Assembly: GCF_003790525.1 (NCBI RefSeq)
Contig: NZ_CP033635.1
DNA length: 64,000 nucleotides
Source: Escherichia coli
GTDB lineage: Bacteria > Pseudomonadota > Gammaproteobacteria > Enterobacterales > Enterobacteriaceae
Strand: one strand, 5' to 3'
The translations under genes and the position numbers were made by a program. The first letter of the stretch is position 1, and each line of letters starts with the position of its first letter. Below the pieces are notes generated by a model, which had not been told where the DNA came from, made no database searches, and worked only from the letters and a program-made list of their open reading frames with translations. Positions 2,373 to 3,006 of this stretch are shown here, one piece after another.

Positions 2373-2966
2373 TCACTCCTTGAGAAGAGTTGTTATCGCT
2401 TCCCCCGCCATGGCAGCTGTTGCACAGAGTTGTTCGATGGAGTGCCCCTCCCGTGCCTTCGCAGAAAGCCCTGACATCACGGTACTCATAAAATCAGTCA
2501 CACATTGTGCGCTTTGTGGATGCCGCCTGGCGATATAGTCATAAATGGTCGTTTCTGCGGCGTGATAATATTGAACGGCAATATCACGCGCTTGTGGATC
2601 ATGACTATGAATACCTTCAAGAACCATACAGCCAGCGCAGCCGCCGTTTTGGCTATATCTGCGCGCCGCTTCTTTTAATACCTCAACCAGGCACTCGCCT
2701 ACCGGACGATCATCACGAAGAATATCGGCAAGCGGAATAGCTTCCGTACCGACATATTCATTGAGTACACGGCTAAATAACCCAGCCTTACTGCCAAAAG
2801 CCGCGTAGAGGCTCGGGGGGTTAATACCAAGATAATCAGTAACTTCAGCAACACTGACAGCATCGAAACCTTTTTGGTGAAAAAGCACTTTTGCCGCAGA
2901 GACTGCCTGCTCAGGAGCGAAACGTCTGGGACGACCTGGAACGCGAGATTGTTTTTTAGTGACCAT
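2373..2966 (-). CDS. bdcR: TetR-family transcriptional regulator BdcR (YjgJ), 197 aa
   Basis: ORF 2373..2966 with ATG at 2964-2966; divergent from bdcA. Confidence 0.85.
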   Translation of the reverse strand: MVTKKQSRVPGRPRRFAPEQAVSAAKVLFHQKGFDAVSVAEVTDYLGINPPSLYAAFGSKAGLFSRVLNEYVGTEAIPLADILRDDRPVGECLVEVLKEAARRYSQNGGCAGCMVLEGIHSHDPQARDIAVQYYHAAETTIYDYIARRHPQSAQCVTDFMSTVMSGLSAKAREGHSIEQLCATAAMAGEAITTLLKE

Positions 2967-3006
2967 TACAAAACTTGTTGACAGAAAGTTAAAACAGTTT
3001 TGTAAT
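2966..3006. promoter_or_regulatory. bdcR-bdcA divergent control region: 9-bp inverted repeat flanking a sigma70-like promoter
   Basis: ttacaaaac (2966-2974) and gttttgtaa (2997-3005) are perfect inverted repeats. Between them lie TTGACA (2978-2983), a 17-bp spacer, and TGTAAT (3001-3006). Confidence 0.5.

Follow-up and report, generated by a model that had tools for sequence, protein, structure and literature searches.

The divergent gene pair bdcR and bdcA of Escherichia coli shares a short control region in which a perfect inverted repeat spans promoter sequences, and this arrangement raises the question of what the repeat represents: a binding site of the BdcR regulator in its own right, or the outcome of some other organization of the region. 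In the window (i.e., the whole 64,000-nt stretch of E. coli DNA that was analysed), the two genes are adjacent and divergent with an intergenic gap of 70 bp, and their stretch matches E. coli SMS-3-5 at 100%. The genes are as follows.

2373..2966, minus strand: bdcR (yjgJ), 197-aa TetR-family regulator (name per RefSeq)
3037..3750, plus strand: bdcA (yjgI), 237-aa short-chain dehydrogenase/reductase, SDR (name per RefSeq)

An earlier sequence-only reading of this DNA had named the genes bdcR (TetR-type) and bdcA, and these identities are borne out by the RefSeq names and by Pfam matches to TetR_N and adh_short, respectively. The TetR_N match of BdcR (E = 2.3e-13; 50.1 bits against a cutoff of 24) places a TetR-type N-terminal helix-turn-helix (HTH) in the protein, which is homologous to CifR and to other solved TetR regulators. 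A second-hand account that names Ma et al. 2011 as its source gives BdcR the role of negative regulator of bdcA. For YjgJ (BdcR), the authors of a published ChIP-seq dataset could fit no binding model, and neither a BdcR operator nor direct BdcR-DNA binding (by EMSA, footprint, or ChIP peak) was found in the accessible literature.

The promoter elements of the region are available from two sources. Among RpoD constitutive promoters, Shimada et al. 2014 (PMC3946193) give 'TTGACA-17-TGTAAT bdcA' and 'TTGATT-17-TACAAA bdcR', and Warman et al. 2026 (PMC12825309) include bdcA/bdcR as one of the five bidirectional promoter regions that were studied, with a sequence in their Table S2 that is the exact reverse complement of window positions 2978-3027. 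The promoter elements and Cappable-seq starts taken from Table S2 were read from its formatting marks, which survive only as asterisks. These features are placed in the window as follows.

2978..2983, plus strand: PbdcA -35 element TTGACA (sequence; Shimada 2014; Warman 2026)
3001..3006, plus strand: PbdcA -10 element TGTAAT, with a 17-nt spacer (Shimada 2014; Warman 2026)
3014, plus strand: bdcA transcription start by Cappable-seq, 8 nt after TGTAAT (Warman 2026, Table S2)
3014-3036, plus strand: bdcA 5' UTR, with the Shine-Dalgarno AAGGAG at 3026-3031 and the ATG at 3037
3022..3027, minus strand: PbdcR -35 element TTGATT (Shimada 2014; Warman 2026)
2999..3004, minus strand: PbdcR -10 element TACAAA, with a 4-bp overlap with the bdcA -10 (Shimada 2014; Warman 2026)
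~2990, minus strand: bdcR transcription start by Cappable-seq, with a leader of 24 nt (Warman 2026, Table S2)

The divergent starts lie about 23–24 bp apart, and the -10 hexamers overlap within 2999-3006. In vitro, two divergent transcripts were made from the bdcA/bdcR region, and the 'bdcA down' mutation of TTGACA led to less transcription in the bdcA direction (Warman et al. 2026). On published data, the region accordingly has the marks of a bidirectional sigma-70 promoter, namely divergent starts at one of the typical spacings (about 10, 18, or 23 bp), a shared -10, and both RNAs. The TTGACA-N17-TGTAAT element had been placed by the sequence-only reading exactly where it lies, with the same hexamers as in Shimada et al. 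2014, and the mapped bdcA start, which that reading had proposed as a check, is compatible with its -10. A consensus promoter scan of 2700-3300 returned no promoter; PbdcA was missed because the scan requires an A at the second position of the -10, which TGTAAT does not have, and the published start mapping takes precedence over this result.

The perfect 9-bp inverted repeat reported by the same reading is present, and its arms (2966-2974 and 2997-3005) lie inside longer arms that are both perfect over 12 nt and are separated by a spacer of 20 nt. In the two lines below, O1 and O2 denote the predicted BdcR operators that are introduced further on.

2964..2975, no strand assigned: left arm of the inverted repeat, CATTACAAAACT, consisting of the O2 inner half and 2 flanking nt
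2996..3007, no strand assigned: right arm of the inverted repeat, AGTTTTGTAATG, consisting of the O1 inner half and 2 flanking nt

Contrary to the sequence-only reading, the right arm does not flank the promoter, since the -10 hexamers of PbdcA and PbdcR both fall within it; the presence of two -10 elements in this arm had not been noticed, nor had the bidirectional nature of the promoter. The bdcR start codon (CAT at 2964-2966, the minus-strand ATG read from 2966 to 2964) is part of the left arm. Among 3000 composition-preserving shuffles of 2940-3040, only one contained perfect inverted arms of 12 nt or more separated by at most 40 nt, while a 9-nt repeat appeared in 1.8% of the same shuffles; across the whole 64-kb window, four perfect inverted repeats of at least 12 nt with such spacers are present against 0.17 expected. 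A chance origin of the 12-nt repeat is unlikely. The other three repeats of this kind in the window (6120-6153, 45056-45088, and 60924-60950) have loops of 1–10 nt and are probably terminators. Position 2975, the innermost base of the left arm and located just outside O2, is T/C polymorphic; 28 of 82 E. coli loci have C, as does the K-12 derivative NEB5-alpha, so that the perfect arms measure 11 nt in about one third of E. coli, including K-12.

The regulator side of the question was approached by comparison of related loci. No BdcR relatives of 65–90% identity were found outside Escherichia, and many homologs were found at 43–62%. The comparison set consists of 15 loci in which a BdcR-like homolog of 43–62% identity is divergent from an SDR gene; they were found by exact-protein look-ups together with tblastn against plasmids and span the alpha-, beta-, and gamma-proteobacteria (Sphingopyxis, Microvirga, Chitinasiproducens, Roseomonas, Tianweitania, two metagenome contigs, Salmonella, Pantoea, Klebsiella pneumoniae, Enterobacter, Roseinatronobacter, Variovorax, Neorhizobium, and Aureimonas). 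Of the 14 loci with annotation, 13 have an SDR of 237 aa; the Neorhizobium locus comes without annotation, and its gene layout was taken from the sequence. A search of genome contigs with E. coli BdcR gave only two Escherichia-type loci, and a metagenome search with the BdcR family alignment, in which hits are ranked against the first sequence, listed 80 loci, all of them E. coli (97–99% identical), which served for the polymorphism analysis only.

In this set, the intergenic length is 59–88 bp in 14 of the 15 loci (67–78 bp in most) and 136 bp in the Enterobacter locus. Read in the bdcR direction, a common layout is found that comprises the SDR Shine-Dalgarno, a palindrome A, a conserved GTCAAGG, and a palindrome B over the regulator start codon, which is overlapped by Block B in all 15 divergent loci. 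The GTCAAGG corresponds to TTGAC of the SDR -35 on the opposite strand; that is, the -35 is kept as TTGAC in the related bdcR-like/SDR loci. The same 22-bp palindrome, approximately TTTTGTAGTG-NN-CACTACAAAA, recurs in two versions as Blocks A and B, and T6, A7, T16, and A17 do not vary among the 30 sites. Each of the 15 loci has exactly two matches to this palindrome, agreeing at 10–15 of 16 consensus positions, while the third-best match agrees at no more than 9. With leave-one-out matrices, the two sites rank as the top two in every 3–3.6-kb locus (49 kb in total), with scores of 15–33 bits against at most 4.6 for the third match, and Block B/O2 outscores Block A/O1 in every locus. A and B lie 44–50 bp apart, most often 47 bp (about 4.5 helical turns). 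Across the BdcR family, the HTH segment GINPPS(F/L)YAAFGSK is nearly invariant, and a shared operator is therefore expected.

A further homolog, from Klebsiella aerogenes (L003; 58% identical and not divergent from an SDR gene), was left out of the matrix and is treated as a lead only. At 1442-1465 of this locus, about 40 bp upstream of the regulator start, lies a perfect palindrome, ATATTGTAA-tgttgg-TTACAATAT, and a second, weak palindrome match is located over the GTG start; since no divergent SDR gene is present, the operator would appear to persist in a different gene context.

The 64-kb window was then scanned with a matrix built from the 30 non-E. coli sites only, by which two operators are predicted.

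2998..3019, no strand assigned: predicted BdcR operator O1, TTTTGTAATGCATGTTACATAA, 23.9 bits, second best in the 64 kb
2952..2973, no strand assigned: predicted BdcR operator O2, TTTTTTAGTGACCATTACAAAA (in the bdcR direction, TTTTGTAATGGTCACTAAAAAA), 28.0 bits, the best in the 64 kb

The next-best match in the window after O2 and O1 reaches 10.6 bits. O1, with the core TGTA-N8-TACA, corresponds by homology to Block A of the 15 loci. It extends from -16 to +6 relative to the bdcA start and from -29 to -8 relative to the bdcR start, so that the bdcA start and the -10 hexamers of the two promoters all fall within it. O2, the homolog of Block B, occupies +18 to +39 of the bdcR transcript, where the start codon and codons 1–5 are located, as well as -62 to -41 of PbdcA; it lies 4 bp upstream of the bdcA -35, with 2974-2977 in between, and the centres of O1 and O2 are 46 bp apart. 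At the sequence level, a predicted palindromic operator of dimer size (about 15–30 bp) therefore overlaps core promoter elements. The match to the family motif is imperfect: degeneracy is seen in the outer half of each E. coli operator, O2 carries TAAA against the family TACA (that position being C in 25 of the 30 sites), the central part of O1 deviates from GTG-NN-CAC, and the internal symmetry amounts to 7/11 in O1 and 8/11 in O2. Because O2 is partly coding, its conservation could partly reflect the protein N-terminus, and because Block A carries the -10 region, the conservation of O1/Block A could partly come from RNA polymerase.

Two smaller observations concern these sites. The regulator start codon occupies operator positions 8–10 of O2 in 16 of 16 loci, and the first five regulator codons (M-V/T-T-T/K-N/K) are encoded by the O2 half-site, for instance at 2952-2966 of the window and at 1494-1515 of a related locus (L004); with the start codon and codons 1–5 inside O2, the protein N-terminus and the operator would constrain each other. 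In addition, a mini-palindrome, AAAAC-a-GTTTT, is located at 2991-3001, directly over the mapped bdcR start, where it abuts or overlaps O1, and AAAAC is also found after the half-site of the left arm, at 2970-2974.

The reading that is preferred here, and that is considered probable, is that the bdcR-bdcA region combines a bidirectional sigma-70 promoter with two BdcR operators whose inner halves form the repeat. The promoters were already published, and the two BdcR operators are predicted here from sequence comparison. The arms of the repeat most likely represent the facing inner half-sites of O2 and O1 across the bdcA -35, and the long-range repeat is probably a by-product of two palindrome copies and would be no binding unit itself. 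As judged from the comparative sequences, a BdcR dimer would recognize the 22-bp palindrome with TA invariant at positions 6–7 and 16–17. One dimer on O1 would exclude RNA polymerase from both PbdcA and PbdcR; since the bdcA start and the two -10 hexamers lie inside O1, such a dimer should block both directions, and O1 occupancy would thus bring about bdcA repression and bdcR autoregulation at the same time. A second dimer on O2, over the bdcR start codon, could act as a roadblock that adds to autoregulation. The role of O2 is uncertain, and the variation in spacing among the loci argues against a fixed cooperative geometry. A ligand would release BdcR. The control of bdcR/bdcA is most likely an ordinary TetR-style switch.

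Such a switch has close counterparts in known systems. The closest solved relative of BdcR is CifR of the Pseudomonas aeruginosa cifR-morB system (E = 1.4e-18; PDB 6NSN/6NSM/6NSR; bioRxiv 2024.01.16.572601), likewise a TetR repressor whose gene is divergent from its target, and the two proteins are alike in the IxPPSLYAAFGSK recognition helix and in the GRPR N-terminal arm, although the alignment is good only over the N-terminal two-thirds. One CifR dimer binds per minimum site of about 23 bp; the HTH motifs are separated by 37.9 Å, and the outer minor grooves, which are A/T-rich, accommodate the N-terminal arginines. This geometry, together with the outer-groove arginines, fits a 22-bp palindrome with T/A-tract ends such as that of the BdcR family. 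The divergent intergenic region of cifR likewise contains two CifR sites, of which the regulator-proximal one binds 10-fold better, and a parallel may be seen in the higher matrix scores of the regulator-proximal Block B/O2 in BdcR-family loci. Differences exist as well: only weak palindromy is ascribed to the CifR operators, in contrast to the clear palindromes of the BdcR family, and the CifR target is an epoxide hydrolase operon with an epoxide as the ligand, whereas bdcA is an SDR gene.

In the Tn10 system, tetO1 and tetO2 lie between the divergent tetR and tetA genes, and a ligand relieves both TetR autoregulation and target repression. The predicted arrangement at bdcR/bdcA resembles it in having two palindromic operators in a short divergent region that overlap both promoters, with one dimer expected on each. 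The tet operators measure 19 bp and lie about 30 bp apart from centre to centre, compared with 22 bp and 46 bp for the predicted BdcR-family sites in E. coli; moreover, unlike in Tn10 tet, one predicted bdcR/bdcA operator lies over the regulator start codon, and the tet operator sequences are unrelated to the BdcR-family sites. As for the promoter, the bidirectional promoters of Warman et al. 2021 and 2026 are of the same shared -10 type as bdcA/bdcR; that work concerns RNA polymerase only and describes neither BdcR sites nor the 12-nt repeat.

Several other explanations of the repeat have to be weighed against the two-operator arrangement. The model implied by the sequence-only reading takes the long-range repeat itself as the BdcR operator, bound by a dimer or a dimer of dimers on both arms, with the bdcA -35 and spacer clamped between them and the 20-bp spacer possibly looped or wrapped. 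Its appeal is that the arms match at 12 of 12 positions and so surpass the internal symmetry of either O1 or O2, that the repeat is statistically unlikely to arise by chance, and that both arms hold a conserved half-site. However, the arm centres are 32 bp, or about 109 Å, apart, far from the 37.9 Å between the CifR HTH motifs, and the half-site spacing that suits a dimer (about 35–38 Å, adjacent major grooves) is not found; across the 15 loci, the perfect runs between inner halves shrink to 2–9 nt, compared with 12 here, while local palindromes are present in all of them, and the site-to-site distance varies over the range given above. Given two near-consensus half-sites, the 12-nt identity amounts to about three extra coincidences, one of which (2975) is polymorphic. 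Of the claim that the arms form a repressor site, the part that stands is that each arm appears to hold a BdcR-family half-site, whereas a single bracketing operator is disfavoured by geometry and conservation and is considered improbable. Slightly less probable still is the view that promoter symmetry alone, i.e., pseudo-symmetric -10/-35 elements in the absence of any repressor site, has shaped the repeat. Warman et al. do call bidirectional promoters pseudo-symmetrical, with bdcA/bdcR as an example, and the right arm coincides exactly with the -10 region that the promoters share; neither promoter, however, includes the left arm or any part of O2 (positioned at +18 to +39 of bdcR and upstream of the bdcA -35), conservation in all 15 loci is nevertheless highest in O2, and promoter symmetry predicts no 22-bp palindrome with an invariant TA...TA that occurs twice per locus.

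Two further candidates were tried and rejected, and both are regarded as very improbable. An RNA hairpin, in which the arms would pair as a 12-bp stem with a 20-nt loop and affect the translation or stability of the bdcR or bdcA mRNA, draws on the folding of 2955-3016 at -18.9 kcal/mol (z = -4.4 against shuffles), but the arm-to-arm complementarity is not kept in related loci; the candidate was rejected on the ground that neither mapped transcript has both arms, because the starts are at 3014 (plus strand) and ~2990 (minus strand). The sites might also belong to another regulator, e.g., CRP, as TGTAA-N6-TTACA resembles TGTGA-N6-TCACA and O1 agrees at 8 of 10 core positions when compared by eye with the textbook consensus. 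CRP directly contacts the G:C pairs of TGTGA/TCACA. Those G:C positions are, however, A:T in all four half-sites, on which ground a CRP-like site was rejected; furthermore, the motif always accompanies a bdcR-like gene, twice per locus, in three proteobacterial classes and also on plasmids, and a motif that travels with this gene therefore indicates the linked regulator.

The two-operator arrangement, if correct, has practical consequences. BdcA has been used as a biofilm-dispersal tool, with BdcR as its reported repressor, and the comparative work yields a testable 22-bp motif together with two exact predicted sites; the predicted operators would account for the possible shut-off of a model bidirectional promoter in both directions by a single repressor, and the striking long-range repeat would not be the right target for mutation. 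For E. coli and for the widespread bdcR/bdcA cassette, the gain is at the level of annotation; the logic is that of a textbook TetR system, and the mechanism is not new. It is possible, though unlikely, that the 12-nt identity is not incidental and reflects O1 and O2 dimers that interact across the bdcA -35, or a cruciform that forms under supercoiling; were either true, a higher-order switch would couple both directions of the bidirectional promoter. Separately, and at the same low likelihood, bdcR-bdcA may constitute a self-contained unit, with operator, -10 elements, and regulator start codon superimposed, that has moved between proteobacterial classes.

Selection on the control region and the spread of the cassette can be followed in the available loci. 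In a divergent Escherichia lineage (L002), the bdcR and bdcA coding sequences are 88.7% and 93.6% identical to the window, respectively, and positions 1880-2030 of this locus show zero differences from window 2917-3040, a segment made up of the control region and ~50 nt from the 5' end of bdcR. Among the 82 E. coli loci, the polymorphism at 2975 is the only common variant in the control region, and two rarer variants fall at operator positions that are also variable in the family. The nearest non-Escherichia BdcR proteins are those of Pantoea (62%) and of alpha-proteobacteria (about 60%), with those of Salmonella and Klebsiella at only about 55%, and many bdcR/bdcA copies are located on plasmids or megaplasmids. 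The comparison of sequences suggests that bdcR/bdcA is a patchily spread and possibly horizontally moved cassette with its own control region. A BdcR protein 98% identical to that of E. coli is also encoded in a metagenome-assembled genome labelled 'Lachnospiraceae bacterium', on a contig (L001; SFGN01000138.1) that is almost certainly mis-binned E. coli DNA.
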